Below, in pieces: positions 46,439 through 54,552 of a DNA stretch of 64,000 nucleotides (the stretch's first letter is position 1; the number at the start of each line of letters is the position of its first letter). Under the pieces are notes generated by a model, which searched no databases, was not told the origin of the DNA, and worked only from the letters and a program-made list of their open reading frames with translations. The translations under genes and the position numbers were made by a program. This DNA is from Escherichia coli (lineage in GTDB: Bacteria > Pseudomonadota > Gammaproteobacteria > Enterobacterales > Enterobacteriaceae), in assembly GCF_045037415.1 (NCBI RefSeq), contig NZ_CP173438.1. One strand, 5' to 3'.

Positions 46439-47070
46439 AACGACGTGACACCATCGTGCGCTACACCGCGCCGGAACGTATCAACCACTGGATCACCGCC
46501 TTCTGCTTCATCCTGGCGGCGGTGAGCGGGCTGGGCTTTTTGTTCCCGTCCTTCAACTGGTTGATGCAAATCATGGGCACACCGCAGCTGGCGCGAATTC
46601 TGCATCCGTTTGTCGGCGTGGTTATGTTTGCCTCGTTCATCATCATGTTTTTCCGTTACTGGCATCACAACCTAATCAATCGGGATGATATCTTTTGGGC
46701 GAAGAATATTCGTAAGATCGTCGTCAACGAGGAAGTAGGTGACACCGGGCGTTATAACTTCGGTCAGAAATGCGTTTTCTGGGCGGCGATTATTTTCCTG
46801 GTCCTGTTGCTGGTGAGCGGCGTGATTATCTGGCGTCCTTATTTTGCGCCTGCTTTCTCAATCCCGGTGATCCGATTCGCGTTAATGCTGCATTCATTTG
46901 CCGCAGTGGCGTTAATTGTGGTTATCATGGTGCATATCTACGCCGCCCTTTGGGTGAAAGGCACGATTACCGCCATGGTGGAAGGATGGGTGACCAGCGC
47001 ATGGGCAAAGAAACATCACCCGCGCTGGTACCGTGAGGTCCGCAAGACAACGGAAAAGAAAGCTGAATGA
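46435..47070 (+). CDS. fdoI: formate dehydrogenase-O cytochrome b556 subunit
   Basis: 211-aa four-helix membrane protein with conserved His; 4-nt overlap with fdoH. Confidence 0.95.
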
Positions 47071-47996
47071 GTATTCGCATAATCCCGCAAGATGAGCTGG
47101 GTTCGAGCGAGAAACGTACGGCGGATATGATTCCGCCGTTATTGTTCCCTCGGCTCAAGAATTTATACAACCGCCGCGCCGAGCGTCTGCGCGAGCTGGC
47201 AGAACATAATCCGCTGGGTGATTACCTGCGCTTTGCTGCGCTTATCGCCCACGCCCAGGAAGTGGTGCTGTACGACCATCCGCTGGAGATGGATCTGACC
47301 ACGCGCATTAAAGAAGCCAGCGCACAAGGCAAGCCCCCGCTGGATATTCACGTTCTGCCGCGTGATAAGCACTGGCAAAAGCTGCTGATGGCGCTGATTG
47401 CTGAGCTGAAACCTGAAATGAGCGGCCCGGCGCTGGCAGTGATTGAGAATCTGGAGAAGGCATCGACTCAGGAGCTGGAAGATATGGCCAGCGCACTGTT
47501 TGCCTCTGATTTCTCGTCCGTCAGCAGCGATAAAGCGCCGTTTATCTGGGCTGCGCTGTCGCTCTACTGGGCGCAGATGGCTAATCTGATCCCCGGCAAA
47601 GCCCGCGCTGAATACGGCGAACAACGTCAATATTGCCCGGTATGTGGCTCTATGCCGGTGTCCAGCATGGTGCAAATTGGCACCACTCAGGGTCTGCGTT
47701 ACCTGCACTGCAACCTGTGTGAAACTGAATGGCACGTAGTGCGCGTAAAATGCAGCAACTGTGAACAGAGCGGCAAACTGCATTACTGGTCGCTGGATGA
47801 CGAACAGGCCGCGATTAAAGCCGAAAGCTGCGATGACTGCGGCACTTACCTGAAGATTCTTTATCAGGAAAAAGAACCGAAAGTTGAAGCCGTGGCAGAT
47901 GACCTCGCCTCTCTGGTACTGGACGCGCGAATGGAGCAAGAAGGCTATGCCCGTAGTTCCATCAACCCGTTCCTGTTTCCGGGTGAAGGGGAGTAA
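47067..47996 (+). CDS. fdhE: formate dehydrogenase maturation protein FdhE
   Basis: 309 aa; CPVCG...CNLCETEWH...CSNCEQ...CDDCGTYLK cysteine pairs. Confidence 0.93.
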
Positions 47997-48177
47997 TCTC
48001 TGACGTTTTCCGGGTGGCGCAGGTCGCCCGGATTACAGTTCATAGGGTGTGACGACACTATCTCTCGTATTCCGCGTTACCTCCTCAAGCTATGCCGCCA
48101 GTGCCTGTTTGGCCTCAATTTTCACGCTGAGAAAATCGATAAGGATATCGATATCAAATAGCCAAATCTTTTTGCCA

Positions 48178-48396
48178 TTACCATTTCTCGCGCAGCTTAC
48201 GCAGGTATTCGACACCATCTTCCTCACACCCTTGCCAGATGCCAGGAACACTGGTTCTTGCTGTTTGCGATTGATTTACCAGGTATTGATCTACCGCTTC
48301 CCGTAATAGGTCTGCACGCGGAAGATTACGCTGCACCTCAAGATCATCAAGTTGCTTAATCACCTCATTCGATAAATCGAGTAAAATTCTGCTCAT
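48178..48396 (-). CDS. ribbon-helix-helix (CopG-like) DNA-binding protein, yiiF-like
   Basis: [39 protein letters not shown] has the RHH beta-strand/helix pattern; 72 aa from the ATG at 48396 (alternative starts 48402, 48420); paralogous to the ORF at 50508-50726. Confidence 0.75.
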
Positions 48397-48510
48397 ATCC
48401 ATACCTGCCAGAGGGTTCATAAATATCTCGCCAATATCATTTTGAATCTATGGAGAGAAAAGTACCCTTGTCGAATCTTTAAAGAAAGCGCATTTACGCA
48501 TCACTTTTTA

Positions 48511-48556
48511 TTTTTGCGAGGCGTTTTCCAGATACGATGTAACAGTTGCAGTTATT
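48511..48556. promoter_or_regulatory. conserved promoter/operator-like motif, copy A
   Basis: TTTTTGCGAGGCGTTTTCCAGATACGATGTAACAGTTGCAGTTATT, recurring at 50820-50866 and in part at 52483-52504. Confidence 0.4.
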
Positions 48557-48709
48557 ACGAAAACCAGTAAAAAATGGAAGTGAAAACAGTCGTGTGAAAA
48601 TTTCTACTCTTTCTGAATTTACTCTATAAAGTTGCCTTTCTCACATCCAATAGCTTAATGTCATCTACCAAGAAAAAACGATAAGTCGTCAGGGAACGGA
48701 ACAGATATA

Positions 48710-49558
48710 ATGAATAAAAACGAATCAATTTCTTACACCGAAATGCAAAAATTTTTTGCCAGAGAAATTAAGGAAGTAGGCGGTAGGCCCATCACTTCTA
48801 AGAATTTAGAGTTAAGTCTGCTACCCATTCACGCCAGGGAAAACCTTTCTGCGCCAGAAATGCCGTGGTATACCGAAGTTAATGATATCTATATGGAGTT
48901 CAGACGCTCACCATTCTGGATGGTTGCCGGTTATGTATTCCTGGGATTTATGCTTTCACTACTTTCCATCTCGATATTATCTATTGTTGCATTCTCATTT
49001 TATGAGATGGGCTTTAATAGTGACTTGTTATTTCTGTATCTACTTGCATTTGTGCTTGGCTGTTTTATATTACCTGGCGCTGCAAAAATTGCTTTTTTCA
49101 CGCCACATTATCTTCCTATAAGATTTAACAGAAAAACACAAAAAATTTATGTTTCAGATTTAATTATTGAAGGCAATATCTTCTTTGGAAAAATAAAACT
49201 CACTTTTCATGAATATGACTGGAAAGATGTTGAAGGTTGGGAGGTGAGTAGACATTTCAGTAAAAGTATGCCTTACAATGGATTACATCTGGTAGTTAAT
49301 AGAGAAAATGATATAAATGCACTGCGACAGACACGCGTTTATACAACCCGTGCACCGTGGAGTGCACAAGAAATGGCAAGACAAAAGAACTATATCCCCC
49401 AAATATGGCTTTATTGCCATAATTATATGGCTTATAAAACTGTGTCTGGTGCAAAGAACAAACCACAACCATTTATTTTTTTAAGAAACAATTGGCTATT
49501 TAAATGGCCAAAAGAAATGGATAAACGTTCCAGAAGCTCAAAGATACTGTCTGAATAA
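48710..49558 (+). CDS. hypothetical membrane protein (two adjacent TM helices), unknown family
   Basis: 282-aa ORF in low-GC DNA (first 200 nt of the ORF about 38% GC by hand count); TM hairpin FWMVAGYVFLGFMLSLLSISILSIVAFSF / LLFLYLLAFVLGCFILPGAAKIAFF; purine-rich SD-like stretch upstream; no family recognised. Confidence 0.6.
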   Translation: MNKNESISYTEMQKFFAREIKEVGGRPITSKNLELSLLPIHARENLSAPEMPWYTEVNDIYMEFRRSPFWMVAGYVFLGFMLSLLSISILSIVAFSFYEMGFNSDLLFLYLLAFVLGCFILPGAAKIAFFTPHYLPIRFNRKTQKIYVSDLIIEGNIFFGKIKLTFHEYDWKDVEGWEVSRHFSKSMPYNGLHLVVNRENDINALRQTRVYTTRAPWSAQEMARQKNYIPQIWLYCHNYMAYKTVSGAKNKPQPFIFLRNNWLFKWPKEMDKRSRSSKILSE

Positions 49559-49582
49559 GCATAATAATGAAGGATTTCGACT

Positions 49583-50323
49583 ATGATTAACAAACTTACT
49601 CTTCCTTGGCCGGTATTATTTTTAGAATTTTTTGTGCGAGAAGTTGCCTTTAAGGGTAAGGGAATTGTTCGTTCTACATTACCAGCAGATGCCCATTTTT
49701 ATACCGGTGGGTCAAAAGCCCTGCGTTATCACCTACAACCAGGAAACCAATGGCCAAACTATATATGGCATGATGATATAGGTGATATTGTACCGTTTCC
49801 TCTACCCTCACTTCCGCTTACATTTACCGCTAACCGACCCACATTTAATTCCAGAGAATTAGCGGATAAATGGATGAAGGATAATATTCATACCGCTGTC
49901 ATCATGGCGGGGGAATTTCTGTCTGCTAATGAATGGATTCGCCGCAAAAACCAGCTTAAAACTAGTGTACACCCTGCGTCAGTTGCTTCTTTCGCACCCT
50001 ATGGCTTTAACATTAACCAGTGTGATGACGATGGCAATCTTTGGACTAATTTCCCACGTCCCCACATCAAATTAAAAATCGCACCAGGAAAAACAGCTTG
50101 TTTTCTCTGCCGCCGGGAAGAGCTTTTATTTGGTTATGATGAAGCACATAATCACTACCAGCCGAATCTTAATCTGGTTTTATTTGTGAAAAATCATGGG
50201 TTGCATAAGGATGTTTACCTAAAATCTCATGACGATAAAAGTGAATACGATAGCAGAATATTATGTAACGAAAAATTTACCACTTATGATTTCCGTAAAA
50301 ACCGGTCCAGATACAGCTTTTGA
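49583..50323 (+). CDS. hypothetical soluble protein, unknown family
   Basis: 246-aa ORF starting 24 nt after the upstream gene with a GAAGGA Shine-Dalgarno; AT-rich codon usage; no motif recognised. Confidence 0.6.
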   Translation: MINKLTLPWPVLFLEFFVREVAFKGKGIVRSTLPADAHFYTGGSKALRYHLQPGNQWPNYIWHDDIGDIVPFPLPSLPLTFTANRPTFNSRELADKWMKDNIHTAVIMAGEFLSANEWIRRKNQLKTSVHPASVASFAPYGFNINQCDDDGNLWTNFPRPHIKLKIAPGKTACFLCRREELLFGYDEAHNHYQPNLNLVLFVKNHGLHKDVYLKSHDDKSEYDSRILCNEKFTTYDFRKNRSRYSF

Positions 50324-50507
50324 TAGTTTATTATCCTGGATGATATCAGGAGCGATATCTATAAAGTTTATGCATTCCCTGTGATCAATTTTTCCTGTTA
50401 GTGAGCACAAATTCAATCTGATTGATGCCAGAATAAAGGCATCTGGCATGTTGATTTTATGTTCCAGAATGACAAAACATTGCTGTTAATAAGCACGACT
50501 CTTTTTG

Positions 50508-50726
50508 TCATTCCTCATGCCACTTACCCTGTTCTTCAACACCAACTACCTCACCCCTTTGCCTGTCACTTTTTGCCTTACGCACCGGAAATTGCTGACG
50601 CTCCAGATATTGCTCTACCGCTTCGCGTAAAATTGCAGAGCGCGAAACCTTACGCCAGCCCCGAAGCTTGTTCAGCCGTTTAATTGCCTCTTCTGATAAA
50701 TGAAGAAAAACCGTATTCATCGCCAT
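50508..50726 (-). CDS. ribbon-helix-helix (CopG-like) DNA-binding protein, yiiE-like
   Basis: MAMNTVFLHLSEEAIKRLNKLRGWRKVSRSAILREAVEQYL; 72 aa from the ATG at 50726 (alternatives 50720, 50753). Confidence 0.75.
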   Translation of the reverse strand: MAMNTVFLHLSEEAIKRLNKLRGWRKVSRSAILREAVEQYLERQQFPVRKAKSDRQRGEVVGVEEQGKWHEE

Positions 50727-50819
50727 TGCCACCACCTTACATATATTACTCATTAATGTATGTGCGAAAATTACGCCGAAAAATCATTTAAAAAAAGCGG
50801 ATTTTTGCATGTCGTTTTG

Positions 50820-50866
50820 TTTTTGCGAGACTGCATCCAAAGATAATGTAACAGTTGCAGTTATTT
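50820..50866. promoter_or_regulatory. conserved promoter/operator-like motif, copy B
   Basis: TTTTTGCGAGACTGCATCCAAAGATAATGTAACAGTTGCAGTTATTT; shares TTTTTGCGAG and ATGTAACAGTTGCAGTTATT with copy A. Confidence 0.4.
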
Positions 50867-51122
50867 CAATTGTTACTCAAAAATGGTTTATTACTTTTAA
50901 TTAAGCGGGGGCACATCTACAGAAAAGAAACAACAAATAATAAGGATGAATTATGGATGCTATAAATATTTTATATTCAAGAATATTTTTTTGATTGGGT
51001 CTTCATTTGCTTCATCAGGATGGTGTACCCGAAAAAGTCAGCAGCTTTACCGCACCAGGGGTTAAGGTGAAATCTACCATTCATAACGACCGGTCAGTGC
51101 CGCACCAACCGGTCTTTAATTG

Positions 51123-51401
51123 TTAGTAGTAGTAAATTTGTGGATAACAGTCCGGGAACCAGACGATTCCTTCCGGATCATCCCCCTGCATTACCCGATG
51201 ACATTGGCGTCGATCATCTGCGCGACGGCGAAGCGTAGTATAGAGCCGCTTCCATTCATGATCGCCCGGTGTACTGTAGTTTACCCAACAATCCATTGAA
51301 GGGTGACGCCATTTACCTGTAAGTGTTGGGATCCCTGAATGCTTATGCGGCTTCGCTTTACCATTACGATCCCTATCTTTACGCGTATTAAACGTGGACA
51401 T
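51123..51401 (-). CDS. hypothetical small basic Cys/His-rich protein
   Basis: 92-aa ORF; no recognisable family; may be a fragment. Confidence 0.3.
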   Translation of the reverse strand: MSTFNTRKDRDRNGKAKPHKHSGIPTLTGKWRHPSMDCWVNYSTPGDHEWKRLYTTLRRRADDRRQCHRVMQGDDPEGIVWFPDCYPQIYYY

Positions 51402-51462
51402 TTTTAGTCTCCTGTTAAGAGTTCTAAAAATGTGCTTCCTTAAAATAGTTCATCATTTTCCC

Positions 51463-51675
51463 TTAATTCGCATAGCGTGCTTTTGCACGAATTTCCGATA
51501 CGCGGGGACCATTATGATAGCGTCGATGCCCACACATCCAACAAGAACAAATACAGGGAGTACGAAAGCAAATACCTGATGCTTTTTTGCTTCCATCGCC
51601 TGCAGTGCGATAACGACAGCGGATTTTTTTTAATCGCACCATATGATGGCGACGTTCAGCACGATTACGGGTCAT
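51463..51675 (-). CDS. hypothetical small basic Cys-rich protein (possible zinc ribbon)
   Basis: 70-aa ORF with CxC...CxxC spacing (CICSCWMCGH); no recognisable family. Confidence 0.3.
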   Translation of the reverse strand: MTRNRAERRHHMVRLKKIRCRYRTAGDGSKKASGICFRTPCICSCWMCGHRRYHNGPRVSEIRAKARYAN

Positions 51676-51759
51676 AGCAAAACTCCTGAACAGGCGGCAC
51701 TATGCCGCTTTCATAGGAGTTCTGAATGCTGGTGCTTTCTGTATGGCATAACCATGCCT

Positions 51760-52050
51760 CTAACGGTTAAGTGCTTGCAGCACATGTTGCGGATCATTGG
51801 CAATCGCTCGCAGCAAAGCCTTTGCAGGCCCGGTCGGTGAACGTCGCCCCTGCTCCCAGTTACGCAACGTGTCTACGCTTACGGAAATAAGATCGGCAAA
51901 TTTAGATTGTGACAACCCTGAAGCGCGGCGTATTTCTTTGATTTTCATAGCATCAACTTCAAAAGTCCGTGAAGGCTGTCGCGTTCCTTCAATAATTTCA
52001 TTCATCTGGGCCATGCTGTGAGTCAACCGCTCAAAAAGTGCCTTATCCAT
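51760..52050 (-). CDS. HTH (XRE-type) antitoxin, HigA-like
   Basis: 96 aa; helix-turn-helix IRRASGLSQSKFADLISVSVDTLRNWEQGRR; ATG directly abuts the upstream toxin stop (TAA-ATG). Confidence 0.75.
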   Translation of the reverse strand: MDKALFERLTHSMAQMNEIIEGTRQPSRTFEVDAMKIKEIRRASGLSQSKFADLISVSVDTLRNWEQGRRSPTGPAKALLRAIANDPQHVLQALNR

Positions 52051-52362
52051 TTACCACCTCGTATTTAACAACCGGAGCATTGCTTTTTCCTGGGGAGACA
52101 GATCATCTTTAATACCCTTACGATAAATAAGCAGTAATCTGATCTCATAATGTTTAACCTGATGAAAGTAAATAACCCTGACACCAGCACGTTTCCCCTT
52201 TCCTCCTGAGACCCATCGAACCTTTCTTAACCCACCAGTTTCAGGTATTACCTCACCATAGTCAGGATTCAAGGCCAGGAAAAACTGAAAACGACTGAAT
52301 TCATCGTCGTTCAGCAGTTTTTGAACATCTTCAGTAAAAATTTCCGTTTCGATGAAGAGCAT
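52051..52362 (-). CDS. RelE/ParE-superfamily toxin, HigB-like (toxin-first arrangement)
   Basis: 103 aa, MLFIETEIFTEDVQKLLNDDEF...GGLRKVRW...GVRVIYFH...IRLLLIYRKG; size, basic patches and coupling to a downstream HTH partner. Confidence 0.7.
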   Translation of the reverse strand: MLFIETEIFTEDVQKLLNDDEFSRFQFFLALNPDYGEVIPETGGLRKVRWVSGGKGKRAGVRVIYFHQVKHYEIRLLLIYRKGIKDDLSPQEKAMLRLLNTRW

Positions 52363-52482
52363 AATTATACGCCATTGGCTTAGAGCAACAATCCTTTTTG
52401 TACGTCATTGACGTACCATTGAAACCACTAGCTTACTGATAGTGCTCCAGCAAAACCACGTCTCTGCCGGGTTTGTCTTTAC

Positions 52483-52504
52483 ATTTGCGAGGCGCTTTCC
52501 AGAT
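52483..52504. promoter_or_regulatory. conserved promoter/operator-like motif, partial copy C
   Basis: ATTTGCGAGGCGCTTTCCAGAT, one mismatch to the first half of copy A. Confidence 0.35.
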
Positions 52505-52578
52505 TTTTCACGCCCGTGAATTTCCCTGTATCCATCCAGCAAAAACGGGTGTATAAAACTGTACATTCATACAGCAAA

Positions 52579-53499
52579 ATGAGTTCTACTATGGCACTGG
52601 AAAAAGGAATTGCAGAGTTAGTCGAAGAGTTTATCGCTGCGGGTCGCCCCTCATCGCGCCAACAAAGTATTACGCAGCGCAGAGAGGGCTATATCGCCAG
52701 CGCTGTCCTTGCGGGTGAGACAGAAACGCGGGTAGATATTCAGACTATCGAACTTGAAGGGATGACCTTACGAATAGTGTCACCGCTGAATGCCCCGACA
52801 TTACTCCCGACGATAATTTATTACTACGGTGGCTGTTTTGTTAGCGGCGGGTTCGCAACTCACGACAACCAGCTGCGCCAGTTAGCCTATTACGGGCAAT
52901 GTCGGGTTATTGCCGTCCAGTATCGGCTGGCACCGGAACATACTTTCCCCGCCGCCCATGATGATGCACAACGAGGTGCAGAATTAGTCCGGCAACACGC
53001 CGAACGACTCGGCGTTGATAAACAACGAATAACTCTTGCCGGTGACAGTGCGGGAGGGCATCTGGCGCTGGTAACTGCTTTGCGATTGAAGCGTGCTGGC
53101 GAGTGGCAACCAGCACAACTCATCTTAATTTATCCTATGCTTGATGCGACTGCGCATTTCGAAAGCTACATACGCAATGGTCACGATTACATCATCACAC
53201 GCGACACTTTACTGAGCGGCTTTGAGATGTACCTGCCAGGCATTGAACGCAGGCATCCTGAAGCCAGCCCTATTTGGCGCAATGATTTCAATGGCTTGCC
53301 ACCTGTACATATCATTACCGCTGAATACGACCCACTTTGCGATGAAGGTGAAGCGTTGTATCACCGCATGACAGGGCAAGGAGTGCAATGCACCTGCCAA
53401 CGCTACCTTGGCGTTATCCACGGATTTTTTCAGTTAGGTGGTATCAGTGAGGCTGCGCGATCGGCGTTACGGGATGTTGCCTGGAGAGCGGGAAGGTAA
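52579..53499 (+). CDS. alpha/beta-hydrolase-fold esterase/lipase
   Basis: oxyanion-hole region YYYGGCF and nucleophile elbow GDSAGG; ORF track starts at a GTG (52516) inside the conserved motif, ATG at 52579 or 52591 preferred. Confidence 0.7.
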   Translation: MSSTMALEKGIAELVEEFIAAGRPSSRQQSITQRREGYIASAVLAGETETRVDIQTIELEGMTLRIVSPLNAPTLLPTIIYYYGGCFVSGGFATHDNQLRQLAYYGQCRVIAVQYRLAPEHTFPAAHDDAQRGAELVRQHAERLGVDKQRITLAGDSAGGHLALVTALRLKRAGEWQPAQLILIYPMLDATAHFESYIRNGHDYIITRDTLLSGFEMYLPGIERRHPEASPIWRNDFNGLPPVHIITAEYDPLCDEGEALYHRMTGQGVQCTCQRYLGVIHGFFQLGGISEAARSALRDVAWRAGR

Positions 53500-53562: not shown

Positions 53563-54552
53563 CTACTCTTCTTCGTTCCCGCCCTCTTCATACGGGCCAA
53601 ATGGCTTCGCGGGCAGAACGATATACGTGCCTTCAAACACTGCACCCGGCGTCTCGTCGCCAAAGATTTCTACTTGCATCTGCACCCGTGCTTTTCGTCC
53701 GCGCGCCAGACGGTCGAGATCGCCACTTAAGGCACCAAGGTCGGCTACCGCATGGGGTTTTCCGCTAATCGGCTTGCTGTAGCGGATATGCGCATCCGCC
53801 AGAATAATCGTTCCGCCGAGGTGGCGTTCGCGCAGCATCAGCCAGATAAGCCCCCAACCGGTGAGCGTAGCCAGCGAGAATAAACTCCCGGCAAACAGCG
53901 TGTGATGCGGATTCTGATTGCCGGTTTCCGGCATGGTGGTGATAAATTTTTGCCCGGTATATTGCTGAATGCGCACACCCATTTTTTCGCTTAACGGGAT
54001 ATGTTCATACCACGCTTGCTGGAGCTGGGCGCACCAGTCGCCGCGATGAAGAATATCATCCAGAGTGGCGACGGGTTTAATCATCAGAAAATGGCGAATC
54101 GGCGTGGTGGTTGGCGTGGTGATTTCACCCTGATTAACAAACCCCAGCTTGGCGAAAAACTCCACCGCGTCTTCACGGGCGCTACAGGTCACGCGCTTAA
54201 CGCCTTCCTGACGTGCCACCGACTCCAGGGTCATCGCCATCAGCGTGCCTAACCCTTTGTCCTGCACGTCGGGATGAACGGCCATAAAGCGAATGGACGC
54301 TTCATTGTCGGCATTAATATACAGTCGGCCTACCGCTACCAGATTACCCTGCTCGTCGACGACCATCTGGTGATGCGCCATCGCATCCCACGCGTCGCGT
54401 TCCGAACCTTTTGGTTGATGCAGGGGCTTACGCAACATTTCCCAGCGAAACTGATAGTAACGCTCTAATTCTTCTTCTGTTTGTGGAACCCGAAGGTGAT
54501 ACATAGCGATACTCTCTCTTGTTTCCCGTGACAACCCTGGAAGCTGGCTCAT
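53563..54552 (-). CDS. yiiD: GNAT acetyltransferase / hotdog-fold fusion protein YiiD (FabY)
   Basis: 329 aa; N-terminal GNAT region and C-terminal thioesterase-like region. Confidence 0.88.

Follow-up and report, generated by a model that had tools for sequence, protein, structure and literature searches.

Genetic organization of the fdhE-fabY region

The region studied here belongs to a 64,000-nucleotide stretch of the Escherichia coli chromosome (hereafter the window; NCBI RefSeq assembly GCF_045037415.1, contig NZ_CP173438.1), the gene order of which was taken from the RefSeq annotation of a strain with the identical sequence. It is bracketed by fdhE (47067-47996, plus strand) and fabY/yiiD (53563-54552, minus strand), and it harbours a short DNA element (motif A) common to three neighbouring transcription units, which we propose to be a CRP-S site, i.e., a Sxy/TfoX-dependent CRP site, with a probability of about 0.78 as judged from sequence. 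In the first unit, the leftward gene of a YiiF-like ribbon-helix-helix (RHH) protein (48178-48420, minus strand, ATG at 48420; CopG family in RefSeq) faces an inserted rightward module of two genes, annotated in RefSeq as encoding a DUF6708 protein (48710-49558, plus strand) and a hypothetical protein of 246 amino acids (49583-50323, plus strand). The second unit is yiiE (50508-50726, minus strand, annotated ATG at 50726), a CopG/RHH paralog of yiiF. The third one consists of a toxin-antitoxin (TA) pair and a divergent esterase gene. The pair is made of a nadS-type/HigA-like helix-turn-helix (HTH) antitoxin gene (51760-52050, minus strand; RefSeq annotation and NCBIfam) and a RelE/HigB-like toxin gene (52051-52362, minus strand; annotated as hypothetical, with weak Pfam and PHROG matches), while the esterase gene is annotated as an alpha/beta hydrolase of the hormone-sensitive-lipase type (52591-53499, plus strand).

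A repeat composed of two separate elements

A first-pass annotation of this DNA had reported a single motif of about 45 bp at 48511-48556 and 50820-50866, about 100-160 bp upstream of the two RHH genes, and a partial copy at 52483-52504. The two long copies (copies 1 and 2) are present there, far above chance, as is the partial one (copy 3), and the distances measured were 91-136 nt for the yiiF-like gene and 94-140 nt for yiiE. What did not hold is the unity of the motif. Motif A (TTTGCGAGGCGYTTTCCAGAT) is exact at 48513-48533 and 52484-52504, and no match with three mismatches or fewer appeared in any of 100 shuffles. Motif B (ATGTAACAGTTGCAGTTATT) is exact at 48537-48556 and 50846-50865, and none of 100 shuffles matched it. 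Copy 2 has a degenerate left half (15/22 identical to the motif A box, with one core mismatch), motif B alone being exact there, and copy 3 is limited to the box of about 21-27 nt, with neither flanking homology nor motif B. The repeat is made of two elements, motif A, common to the three units, and motif B, which is locus-specific in E. coli: motif B occurs at 1-2 places per E. coli genome, every one of them at the yii locus, and a 30-mer centred on motif A has a median of 4 places per genome, with a maximum of 8. In strain K-12, the yiiF leader carries both A and B, and the yiiE leader carries an exact A and a degenerate B, the reverse of the yiiE allele of the window, which shares only about 80% DNA identity with the K-12 allele.

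The similarity of copies 1 and 2 exceeds 45 bp. It covers at least 100 nt (48478-48577 versus 50787-50886, 74% identity) and runs on, at about 55-61%, into the paralogous RHH coding regions, as seen in a four-way alignment with the K-12 units. The identity between the yiiF and yiiE units is 61% in the coding region, 55% from the ATG to an A/T-rich block, 76% in this block, which lies beside the predicted -35, 68% in the 22-mer box, 91% in motif B and 57% in the next 21 nt. Copies 1 and 2 thus do belong to a longer common repeat, an outcome that the first-pass annotation had counted against its own proposal, attributable to an ancient duplication of a gene plus its leader; copy 3 does not. One may then ask whether the whole similarity is a scar, devoid of any function of its own, left when an RHH gene was duplicated in tandem along with its leader. 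The homology of units 1 and 2, which reaches through the coding region into 100 nt or more of leader, and the paralogy of YiiE and YiiF (40-42% identical), would fit with such a scar, but copy 3 is a box without any flanking homology, and the box is kept in the orthologous spacers of Citrobacter, Enterobacter and Superficieibacter, despite their diverged flanks, as well as in more than 12 unrelated contexts. Contradicted by cross-genus conservation as far as motif A is concerned, the scar is very unlikely.

Motif A resembles the CRP-S sites of competence and toxin-antitoxin genes

At a CRP-S site, cAMP-CRP binds productively only when joined by its co-activator Sxy (TfoX). Sondberg et al. 2019 quote the E. 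coli CRP-S motif, taken from Sinha et al. 2009, in the form T4G5C6G7A8-6N-T15T16C17C18A19. Such sites are asymmetric and orientation-indifferent, they require both of their unlike halves, and they operate at class-I-like distances through activating region 1 (AR1) of CRP (Sondberg et al. 2019). Enterobacterial CRP-S halves have C6 or G6, never T6, and the sites are positioned near -62, -73 and -100 (Cameron & Redfield 2006).

The assignment of motif A to this class is based on several observations. First, the cores TGCGA-N6-TTCCA are exact at 48515-48530 and 52486-52501, with two 5-bp cores and a 6-bp gap within a 22-bp site. The candidate site 1, TTTTGCGAGGCGTTTTCCAGAT (TTT-TGCGA-GGCGTT-TTCCA-GAT, 48512-48533), lies between the leftward yiiF-like gene and the rightward DUF6708 operon, and the candidate site 3, ATTTGCGAGGCGCTTTCCAGAT (ATT-TGCGA-GGCGCT-TTCCA-GAT, 52483-52504), between the leftward toxin gene and the rightward esterase gene. 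Second, both sites display the E. coli-type asymmetry T4G5C6G7A8/T15T16C17C18A19, and they have C6 in the left half (TGCGA), while the opposite strand of the right half (TGGAA) has G6. Third, site 3 is identical to the validated CRP-S site in the K-12 sxy promoter (ATTTGCGAGGCTCTTTCCGAAA) at 18 of 22 positions, including the spacer GGCnCT, a closeness reached in one of 20 shuffles of the window, and site 1 is identical to it at 16 of 22. Fourth, among the reference sites, which were taken from the MG1655 sequence, those of ppdD (ATTTGCGAGGCGTTACGAAGAA), chpS (TTTTGCGAGACGACTCGCATTC), yhgH (AAATGCGAGCTAAGTTCCTCGT, TGCGA-N6-TTCCT) and higB (TTATGGAAGCGCGATTCCAGAA, TGGAA-N6-TTCCA), genes reported to be Sxy-induced or homologous to competence genes, are of the same type as motif A. 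A site identical to site 1 (TTTTGCGAGGCGTTTTCCAGAT) precedes K-12 yiiF, and an exact box (TTTTGCGAGGCGTTTTCCAGAA) precedes K-12 yiiE, at the position homologous to that of the decayed site 2 of the window (TTT-TGCGA-GACTGC-ATCCA-AAG, 50821-50842).

Such sites have precedents in the known regulon. The homologues of competence genes are mostly preceded by CRP-S-like motifs (Sondberg et al. 2019), and sxy is positively autoregulated through the CRP-S site in its promoter (Jaskolska & Gerdes 2015; Sondberg et al. 2019). The control of TA operons by CRP-S has been established for the P1 promoter of hicAB and for toxTA of Haemophilus influenzae, and the overexpression of Sxy induces chpSB, higBA and hokD. 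The window sites and the sxy site are alike in their 22-bp geometry, strong half (TGCGA), weak half (TTCC(G/A)), spacer (GGCnCT) and orientation independence. They differ in that the weak half is TTCCG in the sxy site and the consensus TTCCA in the candidate sites of the window, which are placed between divergent units. With canonical CRP-N sites (TGTGA-N6-TCACA), the window sites share length, core spacing and the protein; unlike them, they combine a C6 half with a G6/A7 half, so that weak binding would be expected without Sxy. From their sequence, the window sites appear to be a known kind of switch located at new or little-studied promoters.

Several other identities were considered for the box. 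A sigma-54 promoter was suggested by the minus-strand sequence TGGAAA-N5-TCGCA, in which GG and GC are correctly spaced; even the decayed copy retains these elements. It was rejected, as the K-12 tables of chromatin immunoprecipitation sequencing (ChIP-seq) and of systematic evolution of ligands by exponential enrichment (SELEX) list nothing at yiiE/yiiF (a site is reported in fdoI), though K-12 has two boxes. A recombination or cassette-end (attC-like) site, prompted by two indel junctions at the motif edges (the yiiF deletion of strain EC69 and the DUF6708 insertion), was rejected because a relBE cassette at cybC-nrdG has the box some 100 nt from its end, in the interior; the EC69 junction also resembles a microhomology deletion. 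An RNA element or a terminator was discarded as well: the box contexts have no consistent hairpin, only one of them (L018) folding one, and there was no Rfam match. A phage-borne origin was dismissed, the box being essentially absent from viral contigs (four IMG/VR matches, which is about the number estimated by chance, and weak matches in the phage collection). The marbox, LacI-family, IclR/AllR, RcsB, FNR, Ada box and boxA consensuses appeared to fit less well than CRP-S. A literature search with the motif sequence itself returned no match.

Distribution of motif A in Enterobacteriaceae

A scan with the exact 19-mer TTGCGAGGCGYTTTCCAGA, using one genome per species, yielded 34 loci, some 24 of which belong to Enterobacteriaceae of many genera. 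The box has the sequence TTT-TGCGA-GGCG(C/T)T-TTCCA-GAA. The box, about 21 bp long, is sharply bounded, the flanks being unrelated up to its edges in 14 unrelated contexts, and it lies 49-177 nt from start codons, in both orientations. Four contexts have a rightward unit only and four others a leftward unit only, and because both types occur, the element works, if at all, in either orientation. The natural variants encountered all fall in the spacer or flanks, or alter a single position of the weak core; C13 to T and G10 to A or C are examples, as are the K-12 yhcG allele and site 2 of the window. Enterobacter and Superficieibacter carry the site 3 box in their orthologous RHH-esterase spacer and Citrobacter carries it there with one spacer change, the flanks being diverged.

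The units preceded by the box are diverse. Leftward units include VapB/YiiF-type RHH genes (accompanied in Enterobacter and Citrobacter by an intact vapC, likewise between fdhE and fabY), yiiE, three HigB-like TA pairs unrelated to each other, a SymE-like gene, rhuM and yhcG, and a C4 antisense RNA followed by an open reading frame (ORF) of 151 amino acids. Rightward units comprise a C4 RNA and a 146-amino-acid ORF (in the clpA-infA interval), a RelBE cassette (cybC-nrdG), a HigBA-like pair (ilvA-ilvY, in Salmonella), the esterase, a PRK10515 small protein and yfhM of Kosakonia. The CRP-S-like site of yhcG, which encodes a DUF1016/PD-(D/E)XK nuclease, stands about 105-117 nt upstream of the gene and exists as a K-12 allele, ATATGCGAAGAGCTTTCCTGAA (TGCGA-AGAGCT-TTCCT; L058, 12700-12721), and a strain PN43 allele, ATGCGAGGCGCTTTCCAGAA (L045, 2502-2523). 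The relBE cassette, of about 700 bp (793-1506 of L040, from E. coli AST215, compared with L041 and L042), replaces the 38-nt terminator hairpin of cybC in 391 of 5426 E. coli genomes, and brings both a terminator hairpin of its own and, 64 nt upstream of relB, a CRP-S box. The C4 antisense RNA genes (Rfam RF01695, 52-59 bits; L007 863-949, L011 5250-5333, L027 1783-1867 and L029 7359-7444), found in Enterobacter, Lelliottia and related genera, are followed by an ORF of 146-151 amino acids that was assigned to no family, and the box lies about 150 nt upstream of C4, in either orientation. VapBC, several unrelated HigBA-like pairs, RelBE cassettes, SymE/RhuM, the YhcG nuclease and the C4-antisense-RNA modules form a pool of small accessory modules with near-identical boxes across Enterobacteriaceae.

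Because the box precedes such varied units, in either orientation, in many Enterobacteriaceae, motif A is most probably neither an RHH operator nor a mere duplication scar. The first-pass annotation had proposed that one regulator, possibly the RHH proteins themselves, controls the three units. A single trans-acting regulator is plausible indeed and, from the sequence of the sites, it would probably be CRP-Sxy rather than the RHH proteins, given the many RHH-less units that motif A adjoins. On the RHH proposal, the entire 45-bp motif would be occupied by dimers of YiiF and/or YiiE, which would control the three units jointly. RHH genes do adjoin copies 1 and 2, and motif B, which is restricted to the yii locus, contains an ACAGTT/GCAGTT direct repeat, is 91% conserved against a background of 55-61%, and falls between the predicted -35 and -10 in the yiiE leader. 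Copy 3, however, is devoid of motif B, the ACAGTT/GCAGTT repeat being present at two of the three units only and, in E. coli genomes, at the yii locus only. Moreover, motif A stands beside many RHH-less units (HigBA-like, RelBE, SymE-like, rhuM, yhcG, C4-RNA and yfhM) in genera and at loci unrelated to yiiE/yiiF, and it is accounted for by CRP-S. Joint control by YiiF/YiiE is therefore unlikely.

Another possibility is that a different DNA-binding protein reads the full 21-bp box, including the spacer GGCGYT, or that Sxy itself reads the spacer or the weak half. Many contexts share one 19-21-mer down to its spacer; G likewise opens the spacer of the sxy, ppdD and chpS sites, in which position 11 is mostly C; and whether Sxy contacts DNA is a question that the literature calls open. 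Yet the spacer was fixed by the search pattern, the alleles with a different spacer keep their cores (AGAGCT in K-12 yhcG, GACTGC in site 2 of the window), and these cores equal the CRP-S consensus. Such a reader is very unlikely.

Some points weigh against the assignment of motif A to the CRP-S class. The spacer conservation in the collected loci exists by construction, because the 19-mer had a fixed spacer. Site 2 of the window, judged by its sequence only, does not exceed chance level. Kosakonia yfhM and the sites located downstream of convergent genes (L018 and L023) have no obvious competence or TA theme. The promoter predictions presented below are weak, the rightward promoter of site 1 being under the scan threshold. 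In the literature searched, which did not include Sinha et al. 2009, nothing linked yiiE or yiiF to Sxy regulation. Finally, the support consists of sequence identity, comparative distribution and orientation independence, from which we infer the binding, the promoter positions and the in vivo induction of the window sites.

Proposed mode of action

By analogy with CRP-S promoters, we propose that sugar starvation would raise the level of cyclic AMP (cAMP) and lead to the accumulation of Sxy, whereupon cAMP-CRP and Sxy would bind to 48512-48533 and 52483-52504 and perhaps, weakly, to 50821-50842. A class-I-type contact with RNA polymerase would then increase the transcription of one or both flanking units, in either orientation. 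The presumed targets would be yiiF (an orphan VapB antitoxin, see below) and/or the DUF6708 operon for site 1, yiiE for site 2, and the HigBA-like pair and/or the esterase for site 3.

For comparison with the class-I positions (about -62, -72, -83 or -93), tentative distances can be derived from predicted promoters only. The centre of site 1 (48522.5) lies about 84 bp from the expected start of the leftward promoter TCGACA-18-TAGATT predicted by a promoter scan (48474-48445), and about 60 bp from that of a weak rightward promoter, TTGCAG(48546-51)-18-AAAAAT(48570-75). For site 3, centred at 52493.5, the distance is about 70 bp to the expected start downstream of TATAAA (52552-57), which overlaps with a box of the LexA type (52559-74), and on the other side the -10-like TAAGCT of the toxin operon (52433-52428, minus strand) would set the site near -72.

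Motif B and the yiiF/yiiE paralogs

The yiiF-like protein of the window is 94% identical to K-12 YiiF and 69% identical to the VapB protein of the intact vapBC pair present at the same locus in Enterobacter, whereas the window YiiE is 89% identical to K-12 YiiE. Remnants of vapC, encoding a PIN toxin, were found between fdhE and the yiiF-like gene (48036-48161, minus strand) by tblastn with Enterobacter VapC, residues 9-31 matching at 48093-48161 and residues 104-126 at 48036-48089. The vapC fragments here, and the intact vapBC pair that Enterobacter sp. (L024) and C. freundii (L046) have at this locus, make E. coli yiiF an orphan VapB antitoxin gene, which is retained in nearly all E. coli.

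Motif B is most likely an autoregulatory RHH operator, a promoter element, or both, as judged from its sequence and position. Its first copy (48537-48556) is a candidate RHH operator and/or provides the -35 (TTGCAG, 48546-48551) of the weak rightward promoter; its second copy (50846-50865) fills the spacer of a predicted TTGAAA-18-TATCTT promoter on the minus strand, in the yiiE leader. Motif B resembles RHH operators of the Arc, MetJ, CopG and VapB/FitA types in its short direct repeats, about 6 bp apart, beside RHH genes, whereas motif A is not tied to RHH genes elsewhere. An association with a cognate RHH gene was thus found for motif B, at the yii locus only, and not for motif A. That motif B alone would serve as an RHH operator, acting only on yiiF and yiiE, is a tentative but reasonable option. 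The conserved A/T-rich block at 48478-48511, between site 1 and the predicted yiiF -35 (TCGACA, 48474-48469), shares 76% identity with 50787-50820 and may be an UP-like region or a target of the C-terminal domain of the alpha subunit (alpha-CTD) of RNA polymerase. The yiiE gene has been reported as a SlyA target; SlyA/H-NS was rejected as an explanation of the box, the report concerning A/T-rich DNA and not the box.

The toxin-antitoxin pair and the esterase promoter

The TA pair (51760-52362, minus strand) has the toxin-first order. The antitoxin matches the NadS model of NCBIfam with 60.7 bits, just over the cutoff of 60, and the toxin weakly matches Pfam RelE PF06296 (E=0.006) as well as phrog_5869. 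A 17-bp palindrome, GTACGTCATTGACGTAC (52400-52416), read from the sequence, is likely the antitoxin operator, and a perfect TATAAT (52369-52364, minus strand) stands near it, one base before the toxin ATG. A transcript initiated from this TATAAT would begin inside the toxin ORF, an arrangement resembling the antitoxin-only P2 promoter of hicAB and toxTA. Similarly to hicAB and H. influenzae toxTA, the pair of the window is toxin-first, with a proposed upstream CRP-S site and a second promoter-like TATAAT at the toxin start, beside a palindrome. It differs from them in belonging to the RelE/HigB-like and NadS-type HTH families, in having P1 and P2 as predictions only, and in that its CRP-S site also faces an esterase promoter with a LexA box. 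This LexA-box-like sequence, CTGTACATTCATACAG (52559-52574), lies just downstream of the TATAAA (52552-52557) and upstream of the esterase gene, and it is conserved before the orthologous esterase gene in L024, L025 and L046; the esterase may be SOS-regulated.

Variability of the locus in E. coli

At least 80% of this stretch is carried by 564 of 5426 complete E. coli genomes. The locus is highly polymorphic in this species: K-12 has just fdhE-yiiF-yiiE-fabY, and other strains are without yiiF, without the two-gene module, or with different inserts. Where the window has the DUF6708 module (48558-50501), beginning directly after motif B, the K-12 arrangement has about 73 nt instead. The two proteins of the module had no match in NCBIfam, PADLOC or PHROG, nor had the 246-amino-acid protein any match in Pfam. 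In strain EC69, which is without yiiF (L004 597-730, versus 48058-48512 of the window), the deletion junction falls in the left edge of the box (TCGCGAGG), with the microhomology TATT..CGCG, leaving the box and motif B stranded downstream of yiiE. In the O157 strain Al Ain (L005 2298-4112), two different hypothetical genes between yiiE and fabY replace the TA and esterase unit, and this arrangement is a further allele of a hypervariable spot. Between yiiE and the antitoxin gene, the window also contains a hypothetical gene (92 amino acids; 51123-51401, minus strand, RefSeq annotation) and, between the latter and the antitoxin gene, an unannotated ORF of 70 amino acids (51463-51675, minus strand) that matches phrog_4499 (E=1.4e-13), a function-unknown family. 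Searches of the neighbouring function-unknown proteins in PADLOC, PHROG, NCBIfam and Pfam returned nothing useful.

Significance

As a step towards the function of yiiE and yiiF, which are predicted E. coli regulators without known function, our analysis provides them with a candidate input, namely cAMP-CRP and Sxy, and shows yiiF to be the surviving antitoxin gene of a decayed vapBC pair. The link already known between the competence regulon and TA systems (hicAB, higBA, chpSB and toxTA) would extend to several more units, TA-type or defence-like, across many genera. A broader proposal, that Sxy, known as a competence regulator, would be a master switch for TA and defence-like modules and that the unusually constant spacer and weak half (GGCGYT-TTCCAGAA) would reflect a direct reading of DNA by Sxy, is less likely than not. 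The strong constancy of the spacer and weak half bears on the question of whether Sxy contacts DNA.

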